Origin: an uncultured Actinomycetes bacterium
GTDB lineage: Bacteria; Actinomycetota; UBA4738; HRBIN12
DNA: 64,000 nucleotides
Assembly: GCA_963792215.1 (NCBI GenBank)
Contig: CAWBVL010000007.1
Coordinates: 855,710 to 919,709, forward strand
Direction: 5' to 3'
Positions 1 to 16,985 of this stretch are shown here, piece by piece (positions within the stretch are counted from its first letter, which is position 1; each line of letters opens with the position of its first letter). Under the pieces are notes generated by a model. It was given only the letters and a program-made list of their open reading frames with translations, was not told the DNA's origin and ran no database searches. Made by a program: the position numbers and the translations under genes.

Positions 1-1082
1 GTCGCGACCTCGTCGTGCGGGGCCCGGGGGAGGACACGTACGGGGCGCTGCTCGGCGATGTGGTCGAGCGGTTCGGCTTCGACGCCGGCGCGCTGTTCGT
101 GAGCGTGCCCGAGGGCGGGCTGGACGAGCGGGTCGTCGTCGGCGCGCCCTCGGGATCGATCAGTCCGTCGTGGAACCCGGCGGACCCGGGGCGCGCGCCA
201 GAACGGCTGCCGCTGTCGGTGGGGAACCGCACGCTGGGCCTGGTGGTGCTGACCGGCTCGCGTGAAGCGCTCGACCCGGCCGAGACCCGGGTCCTGCGGG
301 CCGTGTGCGACCAGCTCGCGCTCGTGTTGGAGCGCGACCGGCTCTTGCGCACCGCCACCGATGCCGAGATCCTGCGGCAGACCGAGACGGCCCGACGGAC
401 GATGCTCGCGGCGGTCTCGCACGATCTGCGGAGCCCCCTCGCGGCGATCAAGGCATCGGTGACCGATCTGCTCGACACTGAGGTCCAGCGTTCGGCAGCG
501 GATCGTGATGCCGTCCTCCGCGTCGTCGACCGCGAGGCCGACCGGCTCGATGCGCTCGTCGCGAACCTGCTCGACCTCTCGCGGATCGAGGCGGGCGTGG
601 TCCAGGCCAATCTCGAACACGTCGACCTCGCCGAGGCGGTGACCGCCGAGGTCGACGCTGCATCCATGCGGTGGCCGGATGTCACGATCGCGATGGCGAT
701 CGACGACGGCCATGAGGTTGTGATCGCCGATCCGGTGTTCGTCCCCCGGGTGGTGTCCAACCTGTTGGACAACGCCGCGCGTGCCGCGACGGCCGCCGCC
801 AAGCCCTCGGTCGAGATCGAGATCGGCCCCACGTCCCACGGGAAGCGCAACGCGCAGGTGGCCGTCAAGATCGTCGACCACGGGGCGGGGCTCACGACGA
901 TGGAGCGGACCCAGCTGTTCCTGCCGTTCGCCCGGTTGGACGAGCGCACCACGAAGCTGGGCTCGGGTCTCGGTCTCGCGATCGCACGCGGATTCGTCGA
1001 CCTCATGGGCGGCGAGATCTGGCTGGAGGACACGCCGGGCGGCGGCGCGACCTTCGCCTTCTCGCTGCAGGAGGCGTCGTGA
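1..1082 (+). CDS. KdpD-like sensor histidine kinase (GAF–HisKA–HATPase C-terminal portion), 5'-truncated by window edge
   Basis: H-box 'AAVSHDLRSPLAAIKASV', HATPase motifs 'DNAARAA', 'DHGAGL', 'GSGLGLAIARGFV'. The ORF reaches the window start without an upstream TM segment, so the N-terminus probably lies outside the window. Stop overlaps the next gene's start (GTGA at 1079-1082). Confidence 0.8.
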   Translation, partial: RDLVVRGPGEDTYGALLGDVVERFGFDAGALFVSVPEGGLDERVVVGAPSGSISPSWNPADPGRAPERLPLSVGNRTLGLVVLTGSREALDPAETRVLRAVCDQLALVLERDRLLRTATDAEILRQTETARRTMLAAVSHDLRSPLAAIKASVTDLLDTEVQRSAADRDAVLRVVDREADRLDALVANLLDLSRIEAGVVQANLEHVDLAEAVTAEVDAASMRWPDVTIAMAIDDGHEVVIADPVFVPRVVSNLLDNAARAATAAAKPSVEIEIGPTSHGKRNAQVAVKIVDHGAGLTTMERTQLFLPFARLDERTTKLGSGLGLAIARGFVDLMGGEIWLEDTPGGGATFAFSLQEAS

Positions 1083-1777
1083 CCAAGATCTTGGTCGTTG
1101 ACGACGAGCCGCAGATCCGCGAGGCGATCGAGCGGTCGCTCGTCGCGCGCGGCTACACGGTGGAGCTGGCCGGCGACGGCGCCGTGGCGCTGGACCTCGC
1201 GGCCGCGGCGCCGCCCGACCTCGTCGTGCTCGACCTCAACATGCCGGTGCTCGACGGGCTCGAGTTCTGCCGGCGGATCCGCGCGTGGAGCAGCGTGCCG
1301 ATCATCGTGCTGTCGGTCCGTGACGAGGAGCCCGACAAGATCGCGGCGCTCGACCTCGGCGCGGACGACTACCTGACCAAACCGTTCGGAACCGGGGAGC
1401 TGCTCGCCCGGGTGCGTGCGCTGCTGCGGCGCGGCGAGGGCACGCCGGCTGAACGGCCGCCCGTCTATCAGCTCGACGGCGTCGCGATCGACATGCAGGC
1501 GCACCGCGTGACCCGCGGCAACGGCGACGTCCACCTGACCAAAACCGAGTGGGCCCTGCTCGAGGCGCTGACGGCGTACCCCGGCAAGCTGCTCACCCAC
1601 CGGTGGTTGCTCGAGCGCGTGTGGGGCGACACGTATGGCGAAGACGTCGAGGTGCTGCGGGTGTTCGTCAGCCAGCTCCGTCGCAAGATCGAGCCCGATC
1701 CGCGAAGGCCTCGCGCGATCGTGACGGAACCGGGCATCGGCTACCGCTGGAGCGAACAGCCGGTGGAGGGACGCTAG
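1079..1777 (+). CDS. OmpR/KdpE-family response regulator
   Basis: Receiver 'ILVVDDEPQIR…DLVVLDLNMP…LSVRDEEPDKIAALDLGADDYLTKPF' plus winged-helix C-terminus 'VFVSQLRRKIEPDP…IVTEPGIGYRW'. GTG start translationally coupled to the upstream kinase. Confidence 0.85.
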   Translation: MTKILVVDDEPQIREAIERSLVARGYTVELAGDGAVALDLAAAAPPDLVVLDLNMPVLDGLEFCRRIRAWSSVPIIVLSVRDEEPDKIAALDLGADDYLTKPFGTGELLARVRALLRRGEGTPAERPPVYQLDGVAIDMQAHRVTRGNGDVHLTKTEWALLEALTAYPGKLLTHRWLLERVWGDTYGEDVEVLRVFVSQLRRKIEPDPRRPRAIVTEPGIGYRWSEQPVEGR

Positions 1778-4254
1778 ACCGACGCCGGGAGCGGCGCGTC
1801 GTCGGGGTCGGCTGGGGGCGGCTGAACGCCGCGGACGTAGTACGGGATGTCCGCGACGTCGATATGCGCGTAGCGACCAAGCGAGCGCTCGATCTTCCGG
1901 CTGGTGCGGTCGTGCAGCAGCCGTTGGCGCAGCTGCGGATAATCGCGCCGGGGCATCACGACGGTGATCTCGGTGCCCTCGGACGCCATCCCGACGATGT
2001 AGCGCTCGATCGCCCGCGGCACGTCGCGGTCCCAGCACTCGATCACGTCCAGCGGCACCGGCGCGCGGAGCTCCGACCACCGGTTCGCGAGCTGGGTCGC
2101 TCGATCGGGGTCCGCGGCCGCGTGCACGGCGCGCACGGTCCGGGTCCCGAGCCCGAGCGCGTACGAGACGGCCTGGAGCGTCGCCCGGTCGAGCTTGTCG
2201 ACCAAGACGACTACATCGTGGGTCTGACGAGCGGTGAGCCGGACCACGGGCTTGCCGGCCTCATCGCGCTGCAAAGGATGGACGCCGTCGGGGTGGTCGC
2301 GGACCATCGTGACACGCACGTGGCCGTACGGCAGCAGCGCGCGGTGCAGGCGCGCGCCGGCGCGCCGGTCGGCGACGTGTTCGCGGAGTGACCGCTCGTG
2401 CGGCACGGGAACGATCACGATCGCGTCGCGGTCCTCGCGCTCGTATGCGGCGAGGAAGCCGGCGAGCCGCGCCGCCTGGTCGCCTCGGCCGCGCACGATC
2501 CGGAGCGGGATCGCATCGAGGCCCGCGGTCCGCCACGCGGCCTGCAGCGCTTCGGTTCGGGCGTGATCGTCCTCGACGTGCACGGCGATCGTCCGTTCCG
2601 ACCGGATCGTTCGCGCGTACTGCAGCGCATGCACGGTCTTGGGGTCGAGGTCCTCGACCAGCAGGATCGTGATCGGCGGCCGGTTCTGGGGCGGCGAGAA
2701 CGCCTTCAGGTCCCGCTCGAGCTCGCGCTTCTCGCGGTCGTACTGGTGGTTCATCCGGACCAGCAGGACCACCAAGACCGGCACGAGGATCAAGATGACC
2801 CAGGCTCCCTCGGCGAACTTGGTCCGGGCGACGATCGCGAGCACGACCCCGGTCGCGATCGCACCGACCCCGTTGATCGCCAGCCCGACGCGCCAGCCCT
2901 GTTCGCGCAGGCGCAGGTGGCGCTTCGCCATCCCGGCCTGCGACAGCGTGAACGACGTGAACACGCCGATCGCGTAGAACGGGATCAGCTTCGTGACATC
3001 CGCGTGGAAGGCGATCACGAGGACGATGGCTGCCGCCGACAGCGCCAAGATTCCGTTCGAGAACACCAGCCGGTGCCCGCGAGTCGTGAACTGCCGCGGC
3101 AGGAAGTCGTCGCCGGCGTGGAAGTTCGCCAGGCGCGGGAAGTCGGCGTAGGCGGTGTTCGCCGCCAGCACCAGGATCAACGCGGTCGCGATCTGCAGGA
3201 GCGCGAAGGCGGCGTGGCCGAGCGGGCTCGACCCGTAGACGGCGTGGCCGATGTCGGCGACGACCGTGGACCGTCCCGAGAAGTCGGGCCTGATCTGCAG
3301 CTTCGCAGCGAGCCAGGAGATCCCGAGGAACATCGTCGAGAGAAGGAGCCCGAGGGCGACGAGGGTCTGCCGCGCGTGCTTCCACTCGACCGGCCGGAAC
3401 GCGGGCACGCCGTTGGAGATCGCCTCGACGCCGGTCATCGCGGTGCTCCCGGAGGCGAGCGCGTGCAGCACGATGAACATCGGCACGAGGGCGAACGCCG
3501 ACATCGCACCTCCGCTGGTCGCGGGTGGTGGGACGACGATCGATCCCGTGGCCGCCCGCACCACGCCGACGATGATCAGCGACAAGATGCAGAAGATGAA
3601 CACGTAGGTCGGCGCGGCGAAGATCTTGCCCGACTCGCGGACGCCCCGGAGGTTGCCGTACGCGATCAGCACGATCGAGACGACCGCCATCTCGACGCGG
3701 AACGGCGCCGTCGCCGGGACGAGCGCGATGATCGCTGCCACACCCGCCGACACCGACACGGCGACGGTCAGCACGTAGTCGGTGAGCAGCGCCACGCCGG
3801 CGACCTGGGCGGGGATCAGACCGAAGTTGTCCTTCGTGACGATGTACGCGCCACCAGCCGACGGGTACGCCTTGATCGTCTGGCGATAGCTGAAGACGAG
3901 GATCGCGAGCACGGCGACGATCGCTGCCGACAAGGGCACGATCAGGGAGAACATCAGGATGCCAACGCCCGCGATCGCGAGCGTCTTCAGCATCTCTTCC
4001 GTCGCATACGCGACGGACGACAGCGCGTCGGAGCTGAAGATCGCGAGCGCGGCGATCTTGCCGAGGCGCTCGTGCACCAGGTGGGCGGTCGGGAGCGCCC
4101 GGCCGAGGATCGCCCGCTTGACCGCGTAACCGTTGCTGCGGGGGAGGGGTGGTCGCGAGCTCGGACGCGACGGCGAGGCGGTCGTCCCAGACCGGGCGGC
4201 CGCCGTCTTGGGCCCCGCGCCCTTCTCGGAGGAGGCTTCGTCGGTCTGCATCAC
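1774..4254 (-). CDS. KimA-like K+ transporter (APC superfamily, 12-TM core plus large cytoplasmic C-terminal domain)
   Basis: N-terminal motifs 'FSSDALSSVAYATEEML', 'FSYRQTIKAYPSAGGAYIVTKDN', 'LLTDYVLTVAVSVSAG', 'LTGVEAISNGVPAF' match B. subtilis KimA (YdaO) nearly position-for-position. A ~330-aa soluble C-terminal domain follows. Stop converges on the RR at 1777. Confidence 0.8.
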   Translation of the reverse strand: MMQTDEASSEKGAGPKTAAARSGTTASPSRPSSRPPLPRSNGYAVKRAILGRALPTAHLVHERLGKIAALAIFSSDALSSVAYATEEMLKTLAIAGVGILMFSLIVPLSAAIVAVLAILVFSYRQTIKAYPSAGGAYIVTKDNFGLIPAQVAGVALLTDYVLTVAVSVSAGVAAIIALVPATAPFRVEMAVVSIVLIAYGNLRGVRESGKIFAAPTYVFIFCILSLIIVGVVRAATGSIVVPPPATSGGAMSAFALVPMFIVLHALASGSTAMTGVEAISNGVPAFRPVEWKHARQTLVALGLLLSTMFLGISWLAAKLQIRPDFSGRSTVVADIGHAVYGSSPLGHAAFALLQIATALILVLAANTAYADFPRLANFHAGDDFLPRQFTTRGHRLVFSNGILALSAAAIVLVIAFHADVTKLIPFYAIGVFTSFTLSQAGMAKRHLRLREQGWRVGLAINGVGAIATGVVLAIVARTKFAEGAWVILILVPVLVVLLVRMNHQYDREKRELERDLKAFSPPQNRPPITILLVEDLDPKTVHALQYARTIRSERTIAVHVEDDHARTEALQAAWRTAGLDAIPLRIVRGRGDQAARLAGFLAAYEREDRDAIVIVPVPHERSLREHVADRRAGARLHRALLPYGHVRVTMVRDHPDGVHPLQRDEAGKPVVRLTARQTHDVVVLVDKLDRATLQAVSYALGLGTRTVRAVHAAADPDRATQLANRWSELRAPVPLDVIECWDRDVPRAIERYIVGMASEGTEITVVMPRRDYPQLRQRLLHDRTSRKIERSLGRYAHIDVADIPYYVRGVQPPPADPDDAPLPASV

Positions 4255-4310
4255 GTTCCACGGTAGGAACGCGGGATAAGGGATCCGTAAGGGCGACTAT
4301 CGTTGCGAGC

Positions 4311-5717
4311 GTGGATCGAACGGCGGTCGTCTCGGCCCGGGTACTGGGTGTTCGCCGGCCCTCGTGGAGCAACTGGGCCGCCTATCTCGTGGCGACCGTT
4401 GGCAGCATCGTGATCGCCGCCGTCATGGAGCCCTTCCGGGTCCAGCTGTCGCACACCCTGACGGCGTTCGCGTTCCTCGTCCCGGTCGTGGTGGCCTCAT
4501 GGCTCGGCGGCGTCATCCCCGGGATCGTCGCCGCGGTGGTCGGGTCCGCCCTCTACAACGTGGGGTTCCTGCCGCCCTATGGAACGTTCAACCTCGAGCG
4601 GACCGAATACGTCGTCGCCTTCCTCGCGTTCATCGCGATGTCGCTGTTGATCTCGTGGCTGGTCGGCGTCGCTCACGAGCGCGCGACCGCCGCCGAGGAT
4701 CGCGAGGCTGAAGTTCGGCTGCTCTTCGACCTGAGTCACGTGCTCGTGTCCGAGCGCGCGGAGGGGCTCACGCCGGCGCTCGGCCGCGCCGCGGAACGCC
4801 TGGGCTTCGTCCTTGCGTCGGTGCGTGACGAGACGGACCCGGCGGCGTCCTCTGCGACCGCGTTCCCGTTGCGTGTCGGACCCGCGCGCGTCGGCTCGCT
4901 CGTGTTCGTCGGCGACCGGCCGCCGCTGACCGCTGCAGAGACGCGCGTGGTGCGCACGTTCGCCGACGAGGTCGCGCTGGTGGTCCAGGCCGAGCGCTTG
5001 GAGCAAGAGCTGCGCGAAGCCGAGCTGTACAAGCGGACCGAGGACATGCGGCAGTCGCTCCTCGCGGCGGCGTCACACGAGCTGAAGAGCCCGATCGCCG
5101 CGATCACGGCGTCGGTTACCGACGTGCTCGACCGTGCGGCGTTCGACCGCGAGAGCGTTCGAGTGGTGCTCGAGGATGTGCGTGCCTCTGCCGGCCGGCT
5201 CGCGCAGCTGATCACGAACCTGTTGGACATGTCGCGGATCGAGTCGGGCACGCTCGTTGCCCACGACGACCTCGTCGACCTCGACGACCTCGTTGGTCCG
5301 GCCGTCGACGGCGTGCGCGAACGATGGCCCGGCGTCGAGATCGAGGTGCGCGTTGCCGACGACGCGGTGCGGATCCGTGGCGACGTGTTGTTCGTCGAGC
5401 GGGTCGTAACCAACCTCGTGGAGAACGCGGCACGGGCCGTGCGAGGCGCCGCGGACCGGCGGATCGAGCTCGGCGCAGAGCGGGCCGACGGCGTGGTCGT
5501 CGTCCAGGTGGTCGACCACGGGCCGGGGCTCGCGTTCGGCGACCAGCAGTTGCTCTTCACGCCGTTCTACAAGCTGCAGGAAGGATCGCCGCGCCTGTCG
5601 GCCGGCCTTGGCCTCGCGATCTGTAAGGGCTTCGTCGAGGCGATGGGAGGCGAGATCTGGGCGACCGACACGCCCGGCGGCGGCACGACCATGGGGTTCC
5701 GGCTCCGGGCGGCATGA
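4311..5717 (+). CDS. KdpD-like sensor histidine kinase (4-TM DUF4118-like segment, GAF, HisKA, HATPase) lacking the KdpD N-terminal/Usp domains
   Basis: TM block 'WAAYLVATVGSIVIAAV…LTAFAFLVPVVVASWLGGVIPGIVAAVVGSALYNVGF…YVVAFLAFIAMSLLISWLVGV', H-box 'AAASHELKSPIAAITASV', 'GLGLAICKGFVEAMGGEIW'. The six-frame ORF begins at 4149 but overlaps the divergent permease, so an in-frame GTG at 4311 is proposed; start uncertain. Confidence 0.75.
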   Translation: MDRTAVVSARVLGVRRPSWSNWAAYLVATVGSIVIAAVMEPFRVQLSHTLTAFAFLVPVVVASWLGGVIPGIVAAVVGSALYNVGFLPPYGTFNLERTEYVVAFLAFIAMSLLISWLVGVAHERATAAEDREAEVRLLFDLSHVLVSERAEGLTPALGRAAERLGFVLASVRDETDPAASSATAFPLRVGPARVGSLVFVGDRPPLTAAETRVVRTFADEVALVVQAERLEQELREAELYKRTEDMRQSLLAAASHELKSPIAAITASVTDVLDRAAFDRESVRVVLEDVRASAGRLAQLITNLLDMSRIESGTLVAHDDLVDLDDLVGPAVDGVRERWPGVEIEVRVADDAVRIRGDVLFVERVVTNLVENAARAVRGAADRRIELGAERADGVVVVQVVDHGPGLAFGDQQLLFTPFYKLQEGSPRLSAGLGLAICKGFVEAMGGEIWATDTPGGGTTMGFRLRAA

Positions 5718-6406
5718 GCGACCCGTTGATCCTGGTCGTCGACGATGAGCCGCAGATCCTCCGCGCCGTCGAGCGAACGCTGCTCGCGCGTGACTTCCGC
5801 GTCGAGGCTGCGACCGACGGCCGCGCGGCGATCGGCGCGGTCCGAGACCTCGAGCCCGATCTCGTGGTGCTGGACCTCAACCTGCCGCATGTCGACGGGC
5901 TCACCGCGTGCCGGGAGATCCGGCGGTTCAGCGGTGTGCCGATCCTCGTGCTGTCGGTTCGAGACGCCGAGCAGGACAAGGTGGCGGCGCTCGATCTCGG
6001 CGCCGACGACTACCTGACGAAGCCGTTCGGCGCGGCCGAGCTGCTCGCTCGCGTGCGCGCGCTGCTCCGCCGAGCCGCGCCCGAGCCGAGCGGCACGCGC
6101 TTCGCGGTCGAGGACATCACGATCGATCTGAGCGCGCGGTCGGTCCGCCGTGGCGACGACCAGGTGCACCTCACGCCGACCGAATGGCGGCTGCTCGAAG
6201 CGCTCGCGAGCGCGCCAGGCGTGCTCCGCACGCACGAGTGGTTGCTCGCCGAGGTGTGGGAGGGCGACGGCGTGCCCGATGTCGAGGCGCTTCGGGTGTT
6301 CGTCAGCCAGCTGCGCCGAAAGATCGAGCCGGATCCGCGGCATCCGCGCGCGATCGTCACCGAATCGAGGATCGGGTACCGCTGGCAGCTCGAGCCGACG
6401 GGCTAA
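5714..6406 (+). CDS. OmpR/KdpE-family response regulator
   Basis: 'LILVVDDEPQILRAV…DLVVLDLNLP…LSVRDAEQDKVAALDLGADDYLTKPF…VFVSQLRRKIEPDPRHPRAIVTESRIGYRW'. ATGA overlap with the upstream kinase. Confidence 0.85.
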   Translation: MSDPLILVVDDEPQILRAVERTLLARDFRVEAATDGRAAIGAVRDLEPDLVVLDLNLPHVDGLTACREIRRFSGVPILVLSVRDAEQDKVAALDLGADDYLTKPFGAAELLARVRALLRRAAPEPSGTRFAVEDITIDLSARSVRRGDDQVHLTPTEWRLLEALASAPGVLRTHEWLLAEVWEGDGVPDVEALRVFVSQLRRKIEPDPRHPRAIVTESRIGYRWQLEPTG

Positions 6407-6415
6407 GGCGCCGCG

Positions 6416-7081
6416 TCAGTCGCCGACGATCGCGGACTGAAGCGCCTGCTCGGTCCCCACGCCGGCGAGCGCCACGAGCTCGTCGCCCGTGCCGAGCACC
6501 GTCTCGGGTTGCGGGATGACGACGTGCGCGTCCCGCACGATCGCAACGATCGCCGCGTCGTTCGGCAGCCGCAACTCGTAGATCGGCCGTCCGACCGCCG
6601 GCGAGTCGGCGGCGAGCTTCATCTCCACGATCGAGATCTGCCCGCCCTCCAGGCGCAGCAGCTGCACGAGGTCGCCGGTGGTGACGGCTTCCTCGACCAT
6701 CGACGTGAGCATGTGCGGGGGCGAGACCGCCGTGTCGACGCCCCATTGATCGGTGAACAGCCACTCGTTCTTCGGATGGTTCACGCGCGCGAGCACGCGC
6801 GGCACCGCGAACTCCTGCTTGGCGAGCAGCGACGTCACGAGGTTGTCCTCGTCGTCGCCGGTTGCGGCGACCACGACGTCGGAGCGCGCGAGGTCCGCCT
6901 CTTCGAGCACCCACGGCTCGCACGCGTCGCCGAGCATGATGGTCACACCGGGGATCTCCACACGGAGGTCCTCGACTGTTTGCTTGTCCTGCTCGATCAG
7001 CGTGACCTCGTGGCCGCGCGTGGTGAGGTCGGCGGCCACGTGCCGCCCGATCGCGCCCCCGCCGGTGACGACGACCCGCAT
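6416..7081 (-). CDS. trkA: TrkA-family K+ uptake regulatory protein (NAD-binding RCK-N plus RCK-C), ceoC-like
   Basis: 'MRVVVTGGGAIGRHVAADL' Rossmann GxGxxG, then an RCK_C-like C-terminus. ATGA overlap with the upstream trkA paralog. Confidence 0.8.
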   Translation of the reverse strand: MRVVVTGGGAIGRHVAADLTTRGHEVTLIEQDKQTVEDLRVEIPGVTIMLGDACEPWVLEEADLARSDVVVAATGDDEDNLVTSLLAKQEFAVPRVLARVNHPKNEWLFTDQWGVDTAVSPPHMLTSMVEEAVTTGDLVQLLRLEGGQISIVEMKLAADSPAVGRPIYELRLPNDAAIVAIVRDAHVVIPQPETVLGTGDELVALAGVGTEQALQSAIVGD

Positions 7082-7740
7082 CAGTGGTGCTCCGCCGGCT
7101 CGAGTATGGCGTCGAGTTCGTCCATGTAGTCCTTACCCATCGTGACGATCAGAAAGTCTCCCTCTTGCAGGGTGCTGTCGCTCGCCGGGATGAAGCCCTT
7201 GCCGCCGCGCGACACGCCGGCGACGAGGATGTGCCCGTCGACGTTCAACGTCGAAACGGGCTTGCCGACCAAGTGGCTCGGCACCGGCACGCGCACGCGG
7301 AGCAGCTCGCCGCCGCCGAGGCTCTCGCGCACCTCCTTGCCGGTGTGCAACAGCATCAGCTGGAACTGCTTGACGCCCCAGGTGGTGGTCGCGACCGTCG
7401 GGATGTTCAGCTGCTCGTAGATCTCGGCGCGGCGCGGATCGAAGATGCGCGCGATCACCTTGGGCACGTGGTAGTGCTCGAGCGCGACGCGTGCCGACAC
7501 GATGTTGGAGTTGTCGCCGCTCGAGACCGCGATGAACGCGTCGGCCTCGCGGATGCCCGCTTCCTCGAGCACGTCGCGGTCGAACCCGAGCCCGACGATG
7601 GTTCGGGCTTGCTCGCCGGGCGGATACCGGTCGAACGCCGCGGCGCGCTTGTCGATCACGGTGACCTCGTGGCCCGCGTCGAGCAGTGCGTGCGAGAGCT
7701 CGGAGCCGACGCGTCCGCATCCCATGATCAGCACCCGCAT
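7081..7740 (-). CDS. trkA: TrkA-family K+ uptake regulatory protein, ceoB-like
   Basis: 'MRVLIMGCGRVGSELSHAL…VTVIDKR' Rossmann, and an RCK_C-like 'GKPVSTLNVDGHILVAGVSRGG'. The six-frame ORF extends to 8355, but a 219-aa product from the ATG at 7740 fits the family size. Confidence 0.8.
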   Translation of the reverse strand: MRVLIMGCGRVGSELSHALLDAGHEVTVIDKRAAAFDRYPPGEQARTIVGLGFDRDVLEEAGIREADAFIAVSSGDNSNIVSARVALEHYHVPKVIARIFDPRRAEIYEQLNIPTVATTTWGVKQFQLMLLHTGKEVRESLGGGELLRVRVPVPSHLVGKPVSTLNVDGHILVAGVSRGGKGFIPASDSTLQEGDFLIVTMGKDYMDELDAILEPAEHH

Positions 7741-8082
7741 GGCCGGGAAGCGTACCCGCGCGCGAACCGCCTGACAGCGCCAAGCGGATGGAGAGAGAGA
7801 ACGGAACGGACCCCAGATATGCCTGCGGGCCGACAGCTGGAGGGAGCTGCCGGCCCCGCAGACGGGCTCGGAGGAAAGTAGGTTCGTTGGTGCCCTGTCC
7901 CGCGTCGTCCGATGCCGGGGGTGACGGTCCGACACCAGGGTCAGCGAGACCCTTCTTTCCGTGGATAAGGGTCGGACTCCGCGCGTGAGTGCGGCGTGAA
8001 GGATGCCGAACACCGCGTGAAGAACCCGTGAACGACCCGGCGGCCATCCGGGCGCCAAGATCACGCTCGACCAGGCGGTAGC

Positions 8083-9531
8083 GTGTCCGTCGTGGCCACG
8101 GACCGCAGGGATCCCCGGGTGGACCAGCTGTCGGTTCGCGCGTTGGCGATCGGGGTCGGGGCTGCCCTGTGCGGCGCGATCCTTGTGGCCCTGACCAGGG
8201 AACTTGGCCCAGGCGCGGGGGTCGCGATCCTGATGCTGGCGGTCACGATCTCGGCCGTCAGCGGCGGCATCTGGGCCGGGATCATCACGGCGCTGCTCTC
8301 CTCGGTCGCGCTGCCCTGGATCGAGCAGCCCGGCGTGGGGTTCCAGTTCGAGCAACTCCGCGACGTGATCGCGGCGGTGGTCTTCTTGGCGATCGCCGCG
8401 GTGGTCGGACTGGTCGTCGGCAACGCCGCGGCGGAGCGCCGGCGGGCGACGGAGCGCGAGCGGGAGGCCCGGTTGCTGGCGCTGTTGTCAACCAAGCTGC
8501 TGACTGGCGACGTCCCCGACCGGGTGCTCGACGAGTTCGTCGCGCTGTTGCTCGATCCGTTCAACCTCGCGATGTGCAGCGTGCAGGTAGTGCTCGACGG
8601 TCATGAGATGAGCGCGATCGCGACGCGCGAAGGCGTCGAGCTCGGTGGGCCGAGCGAGATCCTCCCGGTGGTGATCGCGTCGGTGCCGCTCGGCACGCTG
8701 ACCACGGAGCGCCCGGCCCGCGCCCGATCGTTCACCCGCAGGGAACGAGAGCTGCTCGAGGCGGCGACCCGGCAGGCGGCGGTCGCGTTGGACCGCGCGC
8801 GACTCGACGCCCGCGCGCGACTCGCACAGCTCGACGCCGAGACCAACGAGCTGCGCGCCGCGATGTTCTCCTCGGTGACCCACGACCTGCGGACCCCGCT
8901 CGCGTCGATCAAAGCGGGCGTCACGAGCCTGCTCGACACGACCACGGTCCACGACCCGACCCAGCAACACGAGCTGCTCGTCACCATCCTCGAGGAGACC
9001 GACCGGCTGAACCGGCTGGTCGGCAACATCCTCGACCTCGCCCGGATCCGGGCCGGCGCGTTGATCCCGCGCCGGGTTCGGACCGACGTGCAGGAGGTCG
9101 CCGAGGCCGTGCTCGCGCGGATGCGGCCGCAGCTCGAGCGTGTGCGCGTCGAGCTGGCGGTGCCCGACGACCTCCCAGAGATCGCCGCGGACCCGATGCA
9201 GCTCGATCAGGTCCTGACCAACCTCGTCGAGAACGCCGCCCGCCATTCGCCACCCGGCGGGGCGATCCTGATCCACGTATCGCGCGAGGACGCAGCGGTG
9301 CGCGTGCGCGTGAGCGACGAGGGTCCGGGGATCCCGCTCACGCAGCGCGAGAAGGTGTTCGAGCCCTTCTATCGTGGCCAGGAGGAGCCGGAGCGCCCCG
9401 GCAGCGGGCTCGGGCTGTCGATCGCGCGGGCCGTGGTGGTCGCGCACGGCGGCCGGATCTGGGTCGAGGAGACCGCCGGTGGCGGCACGGCGATGGTCCT
9501 GGACCTGCCGATCGAGGAGGCAGCGGCGTGA
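8083..9531 (+). CDS. KdpD-like sensor histidine kinase (TM–GAF–HisKA–HATPase) lacking the KdpD N-terminal domains
   Basis: TM segments 'ALAIGVGAALCGAILVAL…VAILMLAVTISAVSGGIWAGIITALLSSVALPW…VIAAVVFLAIAAVVGLVVG', H-box 'FSSVTHDLRTPLASIKAGV', 'GSGLGLSIARAVVVAHGGRIW'. Third paralog in the window. Confidence 0.8.
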   Translation: MSVVATDRRDPRVDQLSVRALAIGVGAALCGAILVALTRELGPGAGVAILMLAVTISAVSGGIWAGIITALLSSVALPWIEQPGVGFQFEQLRDVIAAVVFLAIAAVVGLVVGNAAAERRRATEREREARLLALLSTKLLTGDVPDRVLDEFVALLLDPFNLAMCSVQVVLDGHEMSAIATREGVELGGPSEILPVVIASVPLGTLTTERPARARSFTRRERELLEAATRQAAVALDRARLDARARLAQLDAETNELRAAMFSSVTHDLRTPLASIKAGVTSLLDTTTVHDPTQQHELLVTILEETDRLNRLVGNILDLARIRAGALIPRRVRTDVQEVAEAVLARMRPQLERVRVELAVPDDLPEIAADPMQLDQVLTNLVENAARHSPPGGAILIHVSREDAAVRVRVSDEGPGIPLTQREKVFEPFYRGQEEPERPGSGLGLSIARAVVVAHGGRIWVEETAGGGTAMVLDLPIEEAAA

Positions 9532-10211
9532 AGGTGCTGGTGGTCGATGACGAACCACAGATCCGTCGCGCGCTCCGCACGAGCCTCGAGGCGCACGGGT
9601 ACACCGTCGAGACGGTGGGCACCGGCGACGAGGGAGTGGTCGCCGCCGCGAGTCAGCACCCAGAGCTGATCCTGCTCGACCTCGGGCTGCCCGACATGGA
9701 CGGCACCGAGGTGATCACCCGCGTCCGCGCCTTCTCGGAGGTCCCGATCATCGTGCTGTCGGTTCGCGAAAGCCAGAGCGACAAGGTGGCCGCCCTCGAC
9801 GCCGGCGCCGACGACTACGTGACCAAGCCGTTCGGGATGGAGGAGCTGCTCGCGCGTTCCCGAGCCGCGTTGCGGCGCAAAGGCTCCGGTGAACCGGACG
9901 CGCCGGTCCTCACCTTCAACAGCTTGCAGGTCGACCTGGCCAAGCAGCTCGTGACGATCGACGGCGAACAGGTCCACCTGACCCCGACGGAGTACGGGCT
10001 GCTCGAGGTGCTCGTTACGAACCCCGGCAAGCTCCTCACCCACCAATGGTTGTTGCGACGGGTGTGGGGCCAGGGCTACGGCACCGAAACGACGTACCTG
10101 CGCACCTACGTCCGGGCGCTCCGGCGAAAGCTCGGCGACGACGCCGCGGCGCCCGCGTTGATCGTCACCGAGCCGGGCGTCGGATATCGCTGGGTCGCTG
10201 ACACGACATGA
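9528..10211 (+). CDS. OmpR/KdpE-family response regulator
   Basis: 'KVLVVDDEPQIRRALR…LILLDLGLPDMDG…LSVRESQSDKVAALDAGADDYVTKPF…YVRALRRKLGDD…IVTEPGVGYRW'. GTGA overlap with the kinase. Confidence 0.85.
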   Translation: MKVLVVDDEPQIRRALRTSLEAHGYTVETVGTGDEGVVAAASQHPELILLDLGLPDMDGTEVITRVRAFSEVPIIVLSVRESQSDKVAALDAGADDYVTKPFGMEELLARSRAALRRKGSGEPDAPVLTFNSLQVDLAKQLVTIDGEQVHLTPTEYGLLEVLVTNPGKLLTHQWLLRRVWGQGYGTETTYLRTYVRALRRKLGDDAAAPALIVTEPGVGYRWVADTT

Positions 10212-10251
10212 CGTACGGGTCGGGCGTGCTCGGCCGTAGCATCGGGGGCTG

Positions 10252-12588
10252 ATGGGCTCCCAACCGAAAGCGTCGACCGGCTCGGTCGCCAAGCGTGTCC
10301 TCGTCGGCCGCGCGTTCTCGAGCCAACACCTCGAGCACACCTTGCTGCCGAAGATCCTCGCGCTGCCGGTGTTCGCCTCCGACGCGCTGTCCTCGGTGGC
10401 CTACGCGACCGGCGAGATCTTGATCGCGCTCACGCTCGCGACCACCGACCCGGCGAAGTACGTGATGCCGATCTCGTTCGCCATCGCGGCGCTGATGGCG
10501 ATCGTCGTGAGCTCGTACCGCCAGACGGTGCGCGCGTATCCGAGCGGCGGCGGTGCCTACATCGTCAGCAAGGAGAACCTCGGCACGTTCGCCGGGCTCG
10601 TGGCGGCGGCCGCGCTGCTGTTCGACTACATGATGACGGTGATCGTCTCGATCGTGGCCGGCGTGTTCGCCATCGGGTCGGCGTTCCCGTGGGCCAACGA
10701 GCACAAGGTGATCCTGTCGATCATGTTCGTTGCCCTCGTGACGATCGCGAACCTCCGCGGCGCCCGTGAGTCGGGCACGCTGTTCGCGATCCCCACCTAT
10801 GGGTTCGTCGTGTCGATCCTGATCCTGATCGCGGTCGGGGCGGTTCGGTGCGTCGGCGGCTGCCCCGCCGTCGCGCCGCCGAGTCCGCAGATCGCGGCGC
10901 CGGCGGCCGTGGCCGGCATCACGATCTTCGCGTTGCTGAAGGCGTTCTCGCAGGGCGCGACCGCGCTCACGGGGGTCGAGGCGATCTCGAACGGCGTGCC
11001 CGCGTTCAAACGGCCGCAAGCGAAGAACGCCGCCGCGACGCTCGCGATCATGGGGACGATCGCGGTGACGATGTTCCTCGGGATCTCCTATCTGGCGACG
11101 CACGTGCCGGGCCTGGTCGCGAGCGAGGACCGGTCGGCGGTCGCGCAGGTCGCGGTCGCGATCTTCGGGAACAACACGTTCGGGTTCTTCATCGTGCAAG
11201 CGTTCACCGCCGCGATCCTGATCCTCGCTGCGAACACCGCGTACCAGGACTTCCCCCGGCTCGCGTCGATCCTCGGCCGGGACCGATTCATGCCCAGCCA
11301 ATTCGTGAACCGTGGCGACCGGCTGGTGTTCTCCAACGGCGTCGTGGTCCTCGGCCTGCTGTCGTCGCTGATGATCTACATCTTCAAAGCCGACCTGAAC
11401 ACCTTGATCCACTTCTACGTCGTGGGCGTGTTCACGTCGTTCACGTTGTCGCAGAGCGGGATGGTGAAGCACTGGATCGCCGAGGGCCGCAAGGGCGAGA
11501 ACGCGATGAAGGGCTGGCGCCGCTCGATCGTGATCAACATCATCGGCGCGATCACGACCTTCGTGGTGTTGATCGTCGTGATCTTTTCGAAGTTCAAGGA
11601 CGGTGCGTGGCTCTCGATCCTGATCATGGCGCTGCTCGTGCCGCTGTTCTACGCGATCCATCGCCACTACACGTGGGTGCGCGCGGCGGTGCACCGTGGG
11701 ACCGAACGCGTCGGCGTCATCGGCCAGACGCACGTCGTGTTGCTGGTGCGCCAGGTAGACGCGTCGGTCGCCGAGGCCCTCGGATACATCCGATCGTTCC
11801 ACCCGCGGTCGCTGCGGGTGCTCACGCCGATGTCGTCGGTGCCGGACGAGCTCGCGACGGGGTGGGCGGAGCTCGCCGGCGCCGGGGCGCCGCCGCTCGA
11901 GGCGGCCGGGCACGGGAGCATGACCGCAAGCGTTCGCCGCGCGGTCGCGCAGATGGATGTCGCGCCGCACGACATCGTGAACCTCGTCGTCCCGGAGCTC
12001 GTCGGGTCGGGGCTTCCCGCGTACGTGCTGCGGCGCTCCGACCTGGTGCGGCTCAAGGCCTCGCTGCTCCGAACGCCCCACGTGGTCGTCACCGACGTGC
12101 CCGTCGTGATGACCCATGAAGGTGTGCGCGGGGTCGACGGGAAGCCCTTGATCCCCCATCGGACGGTCGCGCTGGTCTTCTTGTCCACCGTGAACGACCT
12201 GACGATCCGCGCGGTCAACTACGCGAAGTCGCTCGACGCGACGATCACCCGGGCGATCTACTTCGATCTCGACCCCGAGGCCGCGCACCGGCTCGAGACC
12301 GCATGGTTCGACGCCGGGCTCGAGGTCCCGTTGGACATCGTCGAGGCGCCGTTCCGCGACCTGACCGGGCCGATGCTCGAGGAGGTGCGGCGCTACTCGT
12401 CGGATCCGGGCACCGTGGTCAACGTGATCGTGCCCGAGGTGATCGTGAACCACTGGTGGCAGCTGCCGCTGCACAACCAGAACGCGTTGTTCATCAAGCG
12501 GCTGTTCCTCTATGAGGACCGGGTAGTCCTGTCGAGCGTCCCGATGCTCGTGTCGGGCACGCCGACCAGCGAAACGGAGACCGTCTGA
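10252..12588 (+). CDS. KimA-like K+ transporter (APC superfamily plus cytoplasmic C-terminal domain), second paralog
   Basis: 'FASDALSSVAYATGEILIAL', 'SSYRQTVRAYPSGGGAYIVSKENLG', 'LLFDYMMTVIVSIVAG', 'LTGVEAISNGVPAFKRP'. Starts 40 nt downstream of the RR, same strand. Confidence 0.8.
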   Translation: MGSQPKASTGSVAKRVLVGRAFSSQHLEHTLLPKILALPVFASDALSSVAYATGEILIALTLATTDPAKYVMPISFAIAALMAIVVSSYRQTVRAYPSGGGAYIVSKENLGTFAGLVAAAALLFDYMMTVIVSIVAGVFAIGSAFPWANEHKVILSIMFVALVTIANLRGARESGTLFAIPTYGFVVSILILIAVGAVRCVGGCPAVAPPSPQIAAPAAVAGITIFALLKAFSQGATALTGVEAISNGVPAFKRPQAKNAAATLAIMGTIAVTMFLGISYLATHVPGLVASEDRSAVAQVAVAIFGNNTFGFFIVQAFTAAILILAANTAYQDFPRLASILGRDRFMPSQFVNRGDRLVFSNGVVVLGLLSSLMIYIFKADLNTLIHFYVVGVFTSFTLSQSGMVKHWIAEGRKGENAMKGWRRSIVINIIGAITTFVVLIVVIFSKFKDGAWLSILIMALLVPLFYAIHRHYTWVRAAVHRGTERVGVIGQTHVVLLVRQVDASVAEALGYIRSFHPRSLRVLTPMSSVPDELATGWAELAGAGAPPLEAAGHGSMTASVRRAVAQMDVAPHDIVNLVVPELVGSGLPAYVLRRSDLVRLKASLLRTPHVVVTDVPVVMTHEGVRGVDGKPLIPHRTVALVFLSTVNDLTIRAVNYAKSLDATITRAIYFDLDPEAAHRLETAWFDAGLEVPLDIVEAPFRDLTGPMLEEVRRYSSDPGTVVNVIVPEVIVNHWWQLPLHNQNALFIKRLFLYEDRVVLSSVPMLVSGTPTSETETV

Positions 12589-12614
12589 GGGGTGGGAGGC
12601 GCTAGCATCGAGCC

Positions 12615-13103
12615 ATGAACATCCGCCCCGTCACGTCCGAGGACCTGCCGTTCCTCCGCAAGATGATGTACGAGGCCGCCCGGTGGAACCCGGACTGGCC
12701 GCGCGAGCCGATGGAAGAGGTGCTCGCCGAGCCGATCCTCCTGCGGTACAGCCAGGGCTGGGGGCGCAACGGCGACGGCGGCGTGATCGCCGAGATCGAG
12801 GGCGAGCCGGTCGGCGCGGCGTGGTACCGGCTGTTCACCGAGGACACGCCTGGCTACGGGTTCGTCGATGAGAAGACCCCGGAGCTGTCGATCGCGGTGG
12901 TGCCGCTGCACCGGCGCAAAGGGATCGGCGAGACCGTGCTGCGCGCGTGCATGGTGCAGGCGCGTGAGGAAGGGTTCCAGGCGTTGTCGCTGTCGGTGGC
13001 CGTGCACAACCGGTCGCGGATGATGTACCAGCGCGCGGGCTTCGAGAAGGTGTCGGAGTCCGGTGACGGCGGCGACCACTGGACGATGGTCGCCAACCTC
13101 TAA
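12615..13103 (+). CDS. GNAT-family N-acetyltransferase
   Basis: Acetyl-CoA binding motif 'VVPLHRRKGIGETVLRACMVQAREEGFQALSLSV…N…SRMMYQRAGF'. Confidence 0.7.
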   Translation: MNIRPVTSEDLPFLRKMMYEAARWNPDWPREPMEEVLAEPILLRYSQGWGRNGDGGVIAEIEGEPVGAAWYRLFTEDTPGYGFVDEKTPELSIAVVPLHRRKGIGETVLRACMVQAREEGFQALSLSVAVHNRSRMMYQRAGFEKVSESGDGGDHWTMVANL

Positions 13104-14453: not shown

Positions 14454-16985
14454 ATGCCGAAGACGTTGGTCGTGGTCGAGTCGCCCGCCAAGGCGAAGAC
14501 CATCGAGCGCTACCTGGGGCCGGACTACCTGGTCCGGGCCTCGTACGGCCATATCCGCGACCTGCCCAAGTCCAAGCTCGGGGTGGACCCGGAGCACGAC
14601 TTCCAGGTCGAGTACGAAGTGCCCGAGCGCTCGAAGGAGCACGTCGCCGTCCTGAAGCGGGCGATGAAGTCCGCCGGCGGCCTGGTCCTAGCCACCGACT
14701 TCGATCGCGAGGGCGAAGCGATCGCGATGCACGTCGCGACGCTCCTCGGTGAGGACGCCAAGCAGGCCGACCGGGTCACCTTCACCGAGATCACCCGCGA
14801 CGCGATCCTCGAGGCCTTCGCCCACCCACGCCGGATCGATGGCAACCTGACCGACGCCCAGGAGGCGCGGCGGATCCTCGACCGGCTGGTCGGCTACAAG
14901 ATCTCTCCTCTCTTGTGGAAGCGCGTGCAGCCGGGCCTGTCCGCCGGGCGCGTCCAGTCGGTCGCGGTGCGGCTGATCGTCGAGCGTGAGCGCGAGATCG
15001 ATGCGTTCGTACCGGTCGAGTACTGGAGCATCGACGTCCGGCTCACGCCGGAGGACCCGGAGTCGCCGTTCGTCGCCCGGTTGGTCCAGGTGCCGGACGG
15101 CAAGCTCGCGACGAGCCCCGACAAGAAGGGCCTCGTCCTCGGCGCGCAGGGCGACGCCGACACGCATGCCGCCGCCCTCCGCGACGCCCGCTACCGCGTC
15201 ACCGCGGTCGAGAAGAAGCAGCGCAAGCGCTCGCCGTCGCCACCGTTCACGACCTCGACCCTGCAGCAGGAGGCCGCGCGCAAGCTCGGGTTCGGCGCGC
15301 GCCGAACGATGCAGATCGCGCAGCGCCTGTACGAAGGCATCGACCTGCCCGGCGAGGGCTCGGTCGGCCTGATCACCTACATGCGTACCGACTCGGTGAC
15401 GATCGCCGACTCGGCGCTCCGCGAGATCGCCGAACTGGTCAGGTCCGAGTACGGCGAGTCGTACACGATCGCCGAGGCGCGGCGCTACAAGACCCGCAGC
15501 CGTAACGCCCAGGAAGCGCACGAAGCGATCCGCCCGACGAGCGCGATGCGCACACCCGGGCGTCTCGGGACCGTGCTCGACCGCGACCAGCTCCGCCTCT
15601 ACACCTTGATCTGGCAGCGCACGGTCGCCACACAGATGGCCGAGGCGAGGTTCGACCAGGTCGGCGTCGACATCGAGGCCACAGCCGGCGCGTCCACCTA
15701 CGGGCTTCGCGCCACCGGCCAGACGCTCGTTTTCGACGGGTTCCTCAAGCTCTACCGCGAGGGCCGCGACGACGAGAAGGTCGACGAGGACGCCGAGTCG
15801 AACCTGCCCGAGCTCACCGCCGAGCAGGCGCTCCGGATGCTCGAGGTCCTGCCCGAGCAGCACTTCACGCAGCCGCCGCCGCGGTACTCCGAGGCGTCGC
15901 TTGTGAAGAAGCTCGAGGAGGAGGGCATCGGCCGGCCCTCGACGTACGCGTCGATCATCTCGACGGTCCAGGATCGCGGCTACGTGCGTCTGGAGGATCG
16001 CCGGTTCAAGCCCGAGGACGTCGGCTACGTCGTCACCGACAAGCTGATCGAGCACTTCCCCGACGTCGTCGATGTCAACTTCACCCGCTACATGGAGAAG
16101 GAGCTCGACGACATCGCCGAGGGCCAACTGGGCAAGGTCCAGATGCTCCATGAGTTCAACGCGCCGTTCGAGCGGGCGCTCGAGAAGGCCGAGGACTCCT
16201 TCGAGCGATATCAAGAAGACCTCGACGAGCTCTGTCCGCTGTGTCCGACCGAAGGGCGTGAGCCCGGCAAGCTGCAGGTGAAGCTCGGGCGCTACGGCAA
16301 GTTCATCGGCTGCCCGAACTACCCGGAGTGCCGCTACATCCGCAACATGGACGGAAGCGAGCGCCCCGAGCCCGAGATGCTCGACGAGAAGTGCCCGGAC
16401 TGCGGACGCCAGCTGCAGCGCCGGGTCGGGCGCTACGGCCCGTTCATCGGATGCAGCGGCTACCCCGACTGCCGGTACATCAAGAAGGACCCGCCGCGGT
16501 CGCTCGAGATCACCTGCCCGCAGTGCAACCAGGGCGAGATCGTCGAGAAGCGCACGCGGTTCGGCGTGTTCTACGGCTGCGACCGGTATCCGGAGTGCGA
16601 CTTCGCGATCAACAACGAGCCGCTGAAGGAGCCCCGCTGCCCGGTCGACGGCTCGCTCTTGGTCCAGCGCCCGAAGTCGATCCGGTGCTGGGGATGCGGC
16701 GCCGAGTTCGACCTCGACATGGTGCAGACCAAGGAGGGCGACCCCGAGGCCGAGGCCGAGGCGCGCGCCGCCAAGTCCGCAGCCCGTGCCGCTCGTGCCG
16801 CGGCGAAGGCCGCGAAGAAGAAGCCGGCCACGCGCAAGAAGGCCGCGGCGAAGAAGAAGCCGGCCGCGAAGAAGAAGACCACGACCAAGAAACGCGCGAC
16901 GGCCAAGAAGAAGGAGTCGCCGGACACCTCGCCGGCGACCGAGCCGGCCGCGGTCGCCGCGGCATCTTCCGGCGACGACGCCTAA
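14454..16985 (+). CDS. topA: DNA topoisomerase I
   Basis: Toprim 'TLVVVESPAKAKTIERYLG', catalytic region 'EGIDLPGEGSVGLITYMRTDS', C-terminal zinc-ribbon-like Cys repeats and a Lys/Ala-rich tail 'KKKPATRKKAAAKKKPAAKKKTTTKKRATAKKK'. RBS-like AGAGGAA lies upstream of the ATG at 14454. Confidence 0.95.
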   Translation: MPKTLVVVESPAKAKTIERYLGPDYLVRASYGHIRDLPKSKLGVDPEHDFQVEYEVPERSKEHVAVLKRAMKSAGGLVLATDFDREGEAIAMHVATLLGEDAKQADRVTFTEITRDAILEAFAHPRRIDGNLTDAQEARRILDRLVGYKISPLLWKRVQPGLSAGRVQSVAVRLIVEREREIDAFVPVEYWSIDVRLTPEDPESPFVARLVQVPDGKLATSPDKKGLVLGAQGDADTHAAALRDARYRVTAVEKKQRKRSPSPPFTTSTLQQEAARKLGFGARRTMQIAQRLYEGIDLPGEGSVGLITYMRTDSVTIADSALREIAELVRSEYGESYTIAEARRYKTRSRNAQEAHEAIRPTSAMRTPGRLGTVLDRDQLRLYTLIWQRTVATQMAEARFDQVGVDIEATAGASTYGLRATGQTLVFDGFLKLYREGRDDEKVDEDAESNLPELTAEQALRMLEVLPEQHFTQPPPRYSEASLVKKLEEEGIGRPSTYASIISTVQDRGYVRLEDRRFKPEDVGYVVTDKLIEHFPDVVDVNFTRYMEKELDDIAEGQLGKVQMLHEFNAPFERALEKAEDSFERYQEDLDELCPLCPTEGREPGKLQVKLGRYGKFIGCPNYPECRYIRNMDGSERPEPEMLDEKCPDCGRQLQRRVGRYGPFIGCSGYPDCRYIKKDPPRSLEITCPQCNQGEIVEKRTRFGVFYGCDRYPECDFAINNEPLKEPRCPVDGSLLVQRPKSIRCWGCGAEFDLDMVQTKEGDPEAEAEARAAKSAARAARAAAKAAKKKPATRKKAAAKKKPAAKKKTTTKKRATAKKKESPDTSPATEPAAVAAASSGDDA

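Follow-up and report, generated by a model that had tools for sequence, protein, structure and literature searches.

A putative K+-uptake supercluster linking KdpDE-type kinase-regulator pairs to KimA-family symporter genes in an uncultured Actinomycetes bacterium

The stretch of DNA analysed here, referred to as the window, is a 64-kb piece (70% GC) of contig CAWBVL010000007.1 from an uncultured Actinomycetes bacterium. Its left part, which starts inside the gene HK1, carries three pairs of histidine kinase (HK) and response regulator (RR) genes, numbered 1 to 3 from the left, interleaved with two permease genes (Kim1 and Kim2), two trkA genes and a structured RNA candidate. An earlier note on this DNA had described a KdpDE circuit that was triplicated and rewired onto KimA- and TrkA-type K+ uptake in a lineage without kdpFABC. 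Comparison with relatives, the closest of which were all uncultured Actinomycetota/Actinomycetes metagenome-assembled genomes (MAGs) and soil metagenome contigs, pointed instead to a K+-uptake supercluster that probably contains an ordinary Kdp system and two further, related kinase-regulator pairs beside the permease genes. The features of the region, in window coordinates, are the following:

1-1082, plus strand: 3' part of HK1 (residues ~141-499), frame runs off the left edge; HisKA and HATPase_c, GAF sub-threshold
1079-1777, plus strand: RR1, KdpE-type response regulator; Response_reg and Trans_reg_C, GTGA overlap with HK1
1774-4254, minus strand: Kim1, KimA-family K+/H+ symporter homologue of 826 aa; start GTG 4254 or ATG 4251
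4260-4303, no strand assigned: Kim1/HK2 divergent control region with -10 boxes and a direct repeat
4311-5717, plus strand: HK2, KdpD-core-type kinase of 468 aa, probably leaderless; DUF4118, HisKA and HATPase_c
5714-6406, plus strand: RR2, KdpE-type regulator (Pfam, NCBIfam)
6416-7081, minus strand: TrkA2, half-size RCK protein; TrkA_N and TrkA_C (Pfam, NCBIfam TrkA models)
7081-7740, minus strand: TrkA1, half-size RCK protein; TrkA_N and TrkA_C, PDB TrkA matches
7799-7963, minus strand: structured RNA candidate of ~165 nt, flanked by the RR3 operator and the trkA1 promoter (conservation and covariation)
7985-8032, plus strand: candidate RR3 operator of four GT(G/A)A(A/G) direct repeats (motif scan, conservation)
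8083-9531, plus strand: HK3, KdpD-core-type kinase, likely start GTG 8092; DUF4118, HisKA and HATPase_c
9528-10211, plus strand: RR3, KdpE-type regulator; best NCBIfam model KdpE
10252-12588, plus strand: Kim2, KimA-family K+/H+ symporter homologue of 778 aa, co-directional with HK3-RR3
12615-13103, plus strand: GNAT acetyltransferase, 27 nt past the end of Kim2 (Pfam in relatives)

Within each pair, the kinase and regulator genes overlapped by 4 nt (GTGA, ATGA and GTGA in pairs 1, 2 and 3, respectively), just as the earlier note had read them. Its gene map was also confirmed in that Kim1 diverges from pair 2, with Kim1 and HK2 lying back to back across a 56-bp gap, and in that pair 3 and Kim2 form one same-strand unit. 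The 40-nt gap between RR3 and Kim2 contains a GGGGG ribosome-binding site and, in a sequence scan, no terminator-like site. In most loci of relatives the GNAT gene likewise lies beyond Kim2; it is possibly the last member of the HK3-RR3-Kim2 operon.

The resemblance of the two permeases to Bacillus subtilis KimA, which had been noticed from short motifs, proved to extend over the 12-TM LeuT fold of both proteins. A search of all PDB sequences returned KimA as the only match, with E-values of 1e-121 for Kim2 and 1.8e-106 for Kim1 (6s3k). KimA numbering was rebuilt from the PDB alignments and checked on 22 residues named in two KimA papers, and ten residues (D36, Y43, D117, Y118, T121, S125, T230, E233, N237 and Y377) were kept in Kim1 and Kim2 alike. 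Structure and mutagenesis of KimA have shown that D36, Y43, T121, S125, T230 and Y377 bind or gate K+, that D117 lines the tunnel, and that E233 couples protons (PMC6994465, PMC10284832). The K+-site, gate and H+-coupling residues were also kept in essentially all 79 orthologues from related loci (36-42 per type). Because the K+-site residues are conserved in both permeases and in their orthologues, these do not look like amino-acid or polyamine permeases lacking a K+ site, which was the outcome that the earlier note had set against its own claim. Judged by this homology, Kim1 and Kim2 are members of the KimA family.

Their cytoplasmic parts differ from that of KimA. Two tandem KimA-type (PPAT-like) domains were detected in 80 of 82 sequences using an iterated hidden Markov model, covering residues 529-635 and 681-788 of Kim1, and 495-602 and 639-749 of Kim2. 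As for the c-di-AMP pocket (R337, P479, H579, N580, Q581 and S582 in KimA), Kim2 keeps H-N-Q with S at position 337, and Kim1 keeps R337 but has H-D-R-T at the other motif. A ydaO (c-di-AMP) riboswitch was absent: searching Rfam at gathering score over the whole window matched one tRNA only, and a permissive scan (E up to 10) of positions 7650-8150 near trkA1 and HK3 gave nothing relevant.

HK2, HK3 and a full-length HK1 orthologue matched DUF4118, HisKA and HATPase_c above Pfam cut-offs; this orthologue (500 aa, with DUF4118) came from locus L005 among the relatives, as the N-terminus of HK1 itself falls outside the window. The KdpD C-terminal architecture proposed earlier for the kinases was borne out for these three domains, and its GAF domain appeared only as sub-threshold matches. 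Neither PF02702 (KdpD N-terminal) nor Usp gave a Pfam match in HK1, HK2, HK3 or the full-length HK1 orthologue. KdpD was the best NCBIfam model for the kinases, with its C-terminal part only (134.6-188 bits), as well as the top PDB match of HK3 (6lgq), and HK3 homologues of ~480 aa all carry the JGI label KdpD. By these matches, the three kinases correspond to the transmembrane (TM)/(GAF)/DHp/CA core of KdpD and lack the serine-kinase and Usp part that KdpD carries at its N-terminus. The missing N-terminal domain is common to all three kinases and is a lineage trait, no evidence of rewiring away from Kdp.

The three regulators contain Response_reg and Trans_reg_C (Pfam) and have KdpE as their best NCBIfam model, in agreement with their earlier description as KdpE-like members of the OmpR family. 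The margin was clear for RR3 (245.7 bits vs 193.8 for the next model, MtrA), smaller for RR1 (224.5 vs 200.8 bits) and marginal for RR2 (199.6 vs 192.5 bits). RR3 is 50% identical to what I take to be the sequence of Escherichia coli KdpE. All three pairs have intact motifs around the H-box histidine and the receiver aspartate, in keeping with functional two-component systems. The genes next to HK2 and HK3 are Kim1, trkA and Kim2, not kdpFABC.

KdpA, KdpB and KdpC were not found among the 20 large open reading frames (ORFs) scanned in the window. In relatives, the DNA to the left of HK1 carries, in divergent orientation, a small hydrophobic ORF, a KdpF-like peptide (…LLVYLVYVLIRPERF), kdpA, kdpB with its DKTGT motif and kdpC, and beyond kdpC a convergent, stand-alone KdpD-N/Usp gene. 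Locus L005, collinear with window positions 6-7705 at 89% nucleotide identity, showed Pfam matches for KdpA (E 1.6e-227), E1-E2 ATPase and KdpC, and a 392-aa KdpD_N and Usp protein beside kdpC; L007 is collinear with positions 3-13102 at 86% nucleotide identity. The kdp block adjoined a pair of the HK1/RR1 type in every window-type locus that reaches far enough (L005, L007, L008, L009, L010, L014, L017, L037 and L046), and likewise in many others, with more than 15 such loci in all besides L005. Since the window is cut inside HK1 and the kdp genes lie directly upstream of HK1 in relatives, the apparent lack of kdpFABC is most probably a window-edge artefact, and the claim of a lineage without the pump holds only inside the window. 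Pair 1 is most probably a split KdpD/KdpE system of an already-described type, given the divergent kdpFABC and the separate KdpD-N/Usp gene beside HK1 in relatives, and RR1 is probably the cognate regulator of kdpFABC. A canonical kdp locus accounting for the regulators, which the earlier note had named as a competing explanation, was found in relatives for pair 1. With kdpFABC and KdpD-N/Usp adjoining pair 1 in relatives, the triplicated and rewired circuit reduces to an ordinary split KdpDE (pair 1), an old paralogue operonic with Kim2 (pair 3), and a younger pair-1 duplicate beside Kim1 (pair 2).

The KdpF-like peptide is preceded by a second small hydrophobic ORF (~27 aa, MWDIWVVAITAGFFLLAFALVRWFDAI), with which the kdp operon of relatives opens (L005 ~8250-8440; L007 14803-14970). 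In L007, a long-read MAG, kdpA and kdpB (14970-19292) are frameshifted; both are intact in L005, and an assembly error is the likely cause.

The comparison of gene order covered 46 genome loci at species level and 45 loci from metagenomes. The linkage HK3-RR3-Kim2 was kept in both sets, that is, in ~90 loci, although other parts of the cluster had been rearranged. The commonest layout among the 46 genome loci was Kim2 < RR3 < HK3 | Kim1 > TrkA1 > TrkA2, often with HK1-RR1 and kdpFABC next to it, and the three-pair layout of the window was confined to a subclade (L001-3, 5-9, 14, 17, 37 and 46, plus many metagenome contigs). HK2 and RR2 were found only in window-type loci. HK2 is 42-45% identical to HK1 vs 33% to HK3, and RR2 is 63% identical to RR1 vs 48% to RR3 (RR1 vs RR3: 56%). 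These identities, together with the restriction of pair 2 to the subclade, suggest that pair 3 is an old paralogue and pair 2 a younger duplicate of the Kdp pair. Judging from the layouts, pair 2 arose along with the rearrangement by which Kim1 became separated from trkA1-trkA2.

Two of the compared loci were unusual. L010 (JBLMXP010000102.1) has the same cluster at 58-72% protein identity and is labelled Planctomycetaceae, probably owing to mis-binning. The more distant relative L004 (378-12373) has three KimA-type genes, one divergent and two in tandem after an HK-RR pair, and a 283-aa remnant containing only DUF4118 in the place of HK2, both of which suggest a rapid turnover of module copy number.

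The spacers contain candidate operators. Upstream of HK3, four GT(G/A)A(A/G) repeats lie at 7985, 7996, 8017 and 8028, spaced by 11 bp, 21 bp and 11 bp, and the same four-repeat layout (11 / ~21 / 11 bp) was present upstream of HK3 in 24 further species of ancestral layout. In those 24 species the repeats abut a -10 box TAGCGT, with the start codon 6-8 nt on; in the window, HK3 likely has a leaderless start at GTG 8092, 7 nt after the box TAGCGT (8079-8084). The pattern GTRAR-N6-GTRAR had only two matches on either strand of the 64 kb (7985-8000 and 8017-8032) vs 0.38 expected. The stretch 8015-8036 (GCGTGAAGAACCCGTGAACGAC) was identical at 15 of 22 positions to CCGTAAAGAAACCATCAAGGCC, the 22-bp operator footprinted with DNase for Mycobacterium smegmatis KdpE (PMC5401905).

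The Kim1/HK2 spacer contains a different direct repeat, ATAAGGG (4276-4282) and GTAAGGG (4287-4293), with the same 11-bp spacing, flanked by outward-facing boxes TACCGT for Kim1 (4265-4260, minus strand) and TATCGT for HK2 (4298-4303). This layout was kept in 7/8 relatives, down to 58% HK2 identity, and TAAGG-N6-TAAGG had its single match in the 64 kb here (0.05 expected). The kdpF/HK1 spacer in relatives carries ATGAGG-N5-GTGAGGAAC and GGGATCCGTAA(A/G)G. All three boxes have CGT(G/A)A(G/A)G in common but differ in detail: TGAGG for pair 1, TAAGGG for pair 2 and TGAAG for pair 3. Direct repeats with an 11-bp geometry are those used by dimers of the OmpR/PhoB family. The recognition helices of RR1 and RR2 were almost the same (…LRVFVSQLRRKI), and that of RR3 (YLRTYVRALRRKL) is presumably closer to the helix of E. 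coli KdpE. As the near-identical helices of RR1 and RR2 match the similarity of their boxes, pairs 1 and 2 may cross-talk.

HK1, HK2, HK3, Kim1 and TrkA1 look leaderless, because each has a TANNNT box 5-8 nt before its start and no Shine-Dalgarno sequence (window 4260-4313, 7738-7777 and 8079-8094; L005 ~8124). Kim2 and the small ORF of the kdp operon, by contrast, have G-rich ribosome-binding sites.

Between the HK3 operator and trkA1, the spacer contains a block that hardly varies between relatives with proteins of only 70-90% identity. It had no Rfam match at gathering score, and relaxing the limit to E = 10 added only a chance CRISPR-repeat match in another part of the spacer. Scanning metagenomes with a degenerate 43-nt pattern yielded 45 contigs, and a covariance model was built on a four-helix structure. 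The model returned 54 matches in soil MAGs and metagenomes, one per locus, at 91-176 bits, among them the match in the window (7799-7963, minus strand), and no further copy elsewhere in the ~1 Mb searched. Fitting the alignment to the covariance model was necessary, since an alignment with MAFFT only missed the 5' helices. In the fitted alignment, 91.2% of cells paired vs 39-51% for slid partners, 16 pairs were changed on both sides, and the covariation score was 0.239 vs 0.04-0.10. The block is a well-supported and previously undescribed RNA motif. Its apical loops (GUCACCCC and CCCUCC) and a linker (CUUUCCUCC) are C-rich. Thermodynamic folding was not decisive for the choice of strand (z = -2.7 vs -1.9), and G-U pairs favoured the trkA-sense strand (91% of cells paired vs 83% on the other strand).

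The order HK3 < RNA > TrkA1 > TrkA2 was constant. The trkA1 promoter in the window reads TGTCA-N17-TACGCT, followed after 8 nt by ATG and with no Shine-Dalgarno sequence, and was conserved in all sequence groups as TGTCA-N17/18-TAC(G/C)CT, 7-8 nt, ATG. As this conserved promoter lies between the RNA and trkA1, the RNA would be a small RNA of its own or else a leader upstream of trkA1. The first RR3 repeat pair is situated 22-37 nt upstream of the 5' end of the RNA model, and this proximity makes control of the RNA by RR3 possible. Two other identities of the block were rejected. A 20-codon plus-strand ORF, the candidate for a small protein gene, lacks a conserved stop, and its substitutions are non-synonymous and complementary across the hairpin; a repeated or mobile element does not fit, since each locus has a single copy and the ~1 Mb searched contained no other.

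The tandem trkA pair described earlier consists of two half-size genes with TrkA_N, the NAD-binding domain, and TrkA_C above Pfam cut-offs. Kim1, TrkA1 and TrkA2 lay on the same strand in 32 loci with gaps of ~0-130 nt, as estimated by tblastn (e.g., L028 8615-12350 and L041 6-2733). The 20 large window ORFs scanned and the annotated 22-kb loci of relatives contained neither TrkH nor KtrB. Together with the same-strand unit, this absence suggests that the KimA-like carrier may be the partner of the RCK pair; an action of the pair on a KimA-type carrier is put forward as a hypothesis only.

KdpDE is the textbook sensor of K+ limitation and is normally tied to one target, the Kdp pump. I consider it fairly probable that the cluster is a K+-uptake supercluster of a soil actinomycete, comprising a split Kdp pair (pair 1), a pair-3/Kim2 operon and a pair-2 duplicate beside Kim1, each with its own predicted operator. 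Its full layout would read [KdpD-N/Usp] < kdpC-B-A-F | HK1-RR1 > < Kim1 | HK2-RR2 > < TrkA2-TrkA1 < RNA | HK3-RR3-Kim2 (-GNAT) >. Pair 1 would be an ordinary split KdpD/KdpE driving kdpFABC, and pair 3 with Kim2 would form one leaderless, probably autoregulated operon, in which phosphorylated RR3 (RR3~P) would bind the four 11-bp-phased GT(G/A)A(A/G) repeats upstream of HK3. RR2~P would bind TAAGGG-N6-TAAGGG between the back-to-back promoters of Kim1 and HK2. K+ limitation would thereby raise the expression of an ATP-driven pump and of two proton-coupled symporters via separate but related sensors. The evidence for this wiring comes from sequence conservation; I infer from it which regulator goes with which repeat, that the regulators activate and do not repress, and that the signal is K+. 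The observation that started this analysis was real apart from the missing pump and is partly supported, with the KimA identity of the permeases and the KdpDE-type paralogues holding up.

Several points weigh against the supercluster as drawn here. For an uncultured lineage, expression, binding and transport are all read from sequence, and the kdpFABC adjacency of the window itself, which is cut inside HK1, is taken from relatives. The promoters and leaderless starts were called from TANNNT motifs read by eye; a generic scan for sigma-70 promoters and for terminators told little in DNA of 70% GC and returned no promoter. All GAF matches of the kinases were below Pfam cut-offs, the kinases scored below the NCBIfam KdpD equivalog score (NF007793, 1123 bits), and RR1, RR2 and RR3 were below the KdpE equivalog cut-off of 325 bits. 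The latter cut-off looks too strict for this phylum, because RR1, which stands beside kdpFABC in relatives, also fails it. In DNA recognition, near-identical helices and boxes as close as TGAGG and TAAGG may leave pairs 1 and 2 without insulation from each other, and the kinases may sense different signals, as their sensor regions are only 33-45% identical.

The last two points lead to rival explanations. The first of these objections would extend to all three pairs if they were partly redundant and cross-talking on one K+ regulon, with their adjacency to transporter genes reflecting duplication history and not dedicated wiring. The nearly identical helices of RR1 and RR2, their similar boxes and the CGT(G/A)A(G/A)G common to all three boxes fit this idea, which I nevertheless regard as improbable, as each pair has its own conserved and distinguishable repeat at its own promoter, and HK3-RR3-Kim2 stayed linked through ~90 loci while the rest of the cluster was rearranged. 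It is somewhat more credible, albeit still doubtful, that pairs 2 and 3 regulate the adjacent KimA-type genes but do so in response to osmolarity, pH, Na+/NH4+ or turgor and not to K+, so that the cluster integrates several stresses instead of tiers of K+ limitation. The low identity of the TM/GAF sensor regions would agree with this, as would the proton-coupled and therefore pH-dependent transport of the KimA type (PMC6994465) and the response of M. smegmatis kdp expression to Na+ and NH4+ (PMC5401905). On the other hand, the HK chains of split KdpD systems have been argued to keep the domains used for K+ sensing in E. coli (PMC11018627), and the neighbouring cargo genes all encode components of K+ uptake.

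The remaining rivals concern the identity of the genes. That the permeases are amino-acid or polyamine APC transporters with a merely apparent link to K+ could be argued from annotation: Pfam gives only AA_permease_2, the JGI label is 'amino acid transporter', and the sole NCBIfam match, for Kim2, is a weak one to an amino-acid transporter model. KimA is nevertheless their only solved relative (E 1e-106 to 1e-121), both paralogues and the orthologues keep the full set of ten K+-site, gate and H+-coupling residues, and the neighbours are kdp, trkA and KdpDE-type genes, all of which makes such a function highly improbable. Least credible of all is the scenario of a lineage without kdpFABC and with all three KdpDE circuits rewired onto KimA/TrkA uptake. 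The empty 64-kb window, without KdpA, KdpB or KdpC, and kinases devoid of the KdpD N-terminal and Usp domains speak for it; yet kdpF-A-B-C and KdpD-N/Usp lie upstream of HK1 in every relative extending far enough, including the 89%-identical L005. With the window simply cut inside HK1, the scenario survives only if a deletion occurred exactly at the junction.

A bolder version of the supercluster, which I offer as speculative and rather unlikely in its entirety, would be a tiered K+ network: KdpE paralogues would directly drive the KimA-type symporters, TrkA1/TrkA2 would gate a KimA-like permease in place of TrkH/KtrB, and the 165-nt RNA would be a K+ regulatory RNA controlled by a KdpE paralogue.

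Further to the right, the window contains other signalling genes. Five large histidine kinases of the HisKA_3 type (~700-880 aa) stand in a row between 22152 and 35113 (22152-24338, 24272-26839, 26350-28437, 28335-30590 and 32477-35113), with a response-regulator/adenylate-cyclase fusion at 31563-33029. A Usp domain fused to an ABC1 atypical kinase domain is encoded at 36152-38290 on the minus strand.

In the supercluster reading, the sensing core of KdpD was copied next to proton-coupled importers of the KimA type, and the KdpD core would, if the wiring is true, be a reusable K+-sensing module. Such wiring would also be a transcriptional alternative to the control of kimA by a c-di-AMP riboswitch in Firmicutes, and its operator/regulator pairs would lend themselves to studying how paralogous two-component systems become insulated. 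A literature search for a regulatory link between KdpE and KimA found nothing.

Among known systems, the closest to pair 1 is the split KdpD described by Silberberg et al. (2024), in which a KdpD/Usp serine-kinase chain is kept with the pump and a separate TM/GAF/DHp-CA chain forms the histidine kinase (PMC11018627). As in the split KdpD/KdpE systems with kdpFABC of Alicyclobacillus acidocaldarius, Deinococcus and Anabaena (PMC11018627), relatives of the window have a separate KdpD-N/Usp chain downstream of kdpC, and a TM/GAF/DHp-CA kinase chain with a KdpE-type regulator divergent from kdpF, a description that pair 1 fits. The difference is that two more kinase-core/KdpE pairs reside in the same cluster here, beside non-Kdp K+ importers, and no paper on such paralogous pairs was found in a literature search. 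Split KdpD/KdpE of the pair 1 type is thus known, and what is new are KdpD-core/KdpE paralogues linked to KimA-type symporters with their own putative operator variants.

Kim1 and Kim2 share with B. subtilis KimA (PDB 6S3K, 8B70 and 8B71) the character of a LeuT-fold, KUP-family homologue, the ten residues and a PPAT-like cytoplasmic domain. They differ in having two such domains in tandem where KimA has one, in keeping the c-di-AMP pocket only partly, and in being linked to two-component systems instead of a ydaO riboswitch. The candidate RR3 operator shares with the M. smegmatis KdpE operator (PMC5401905) CGT(A/G)AAG half-sites 11 bp apart, in keeping with the 15/22 identity of the window stretch. 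It differs in having four repeats, arranged as two phased pairs, and in its position upstream of a kinase-regulator-KimA operon and not of kdpF.

The TrkA pair, finally, resembles mycobacterial CeoB/CeoC with the adjacent gene Rv2690c, the product of which I take to be a KimA-like APC permease homologous to Kim1. In both cases, two tandem half-size TrkA_N and TrkA_C genes lie by a permease gene, with no TrkH/KtrB seen nearby. One report describes the 'Trk system' of Mycobacterium tuberculosis as two TrkA proteins (PMC13163235), and in one transposon-sequencing screen M. tuberculosis Rv2690c and ceoB mutants behaved alike (PMC12216072). Gating of a KimA-like permease by the RCK pair, if it occurs, would also explain a Trk system made of two TrkA proteins, and the conserved Kim1-TrkA1-TrkA2 linkage bears on the question of the membrane partner of CeoB/CeoC in mycobacteria. 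The mycobacterial genes differ in this from the pair described here, which in most relatives shares an operon with Kim1 and has KdpDE-type pairs and a structured RNA as its neighbours.

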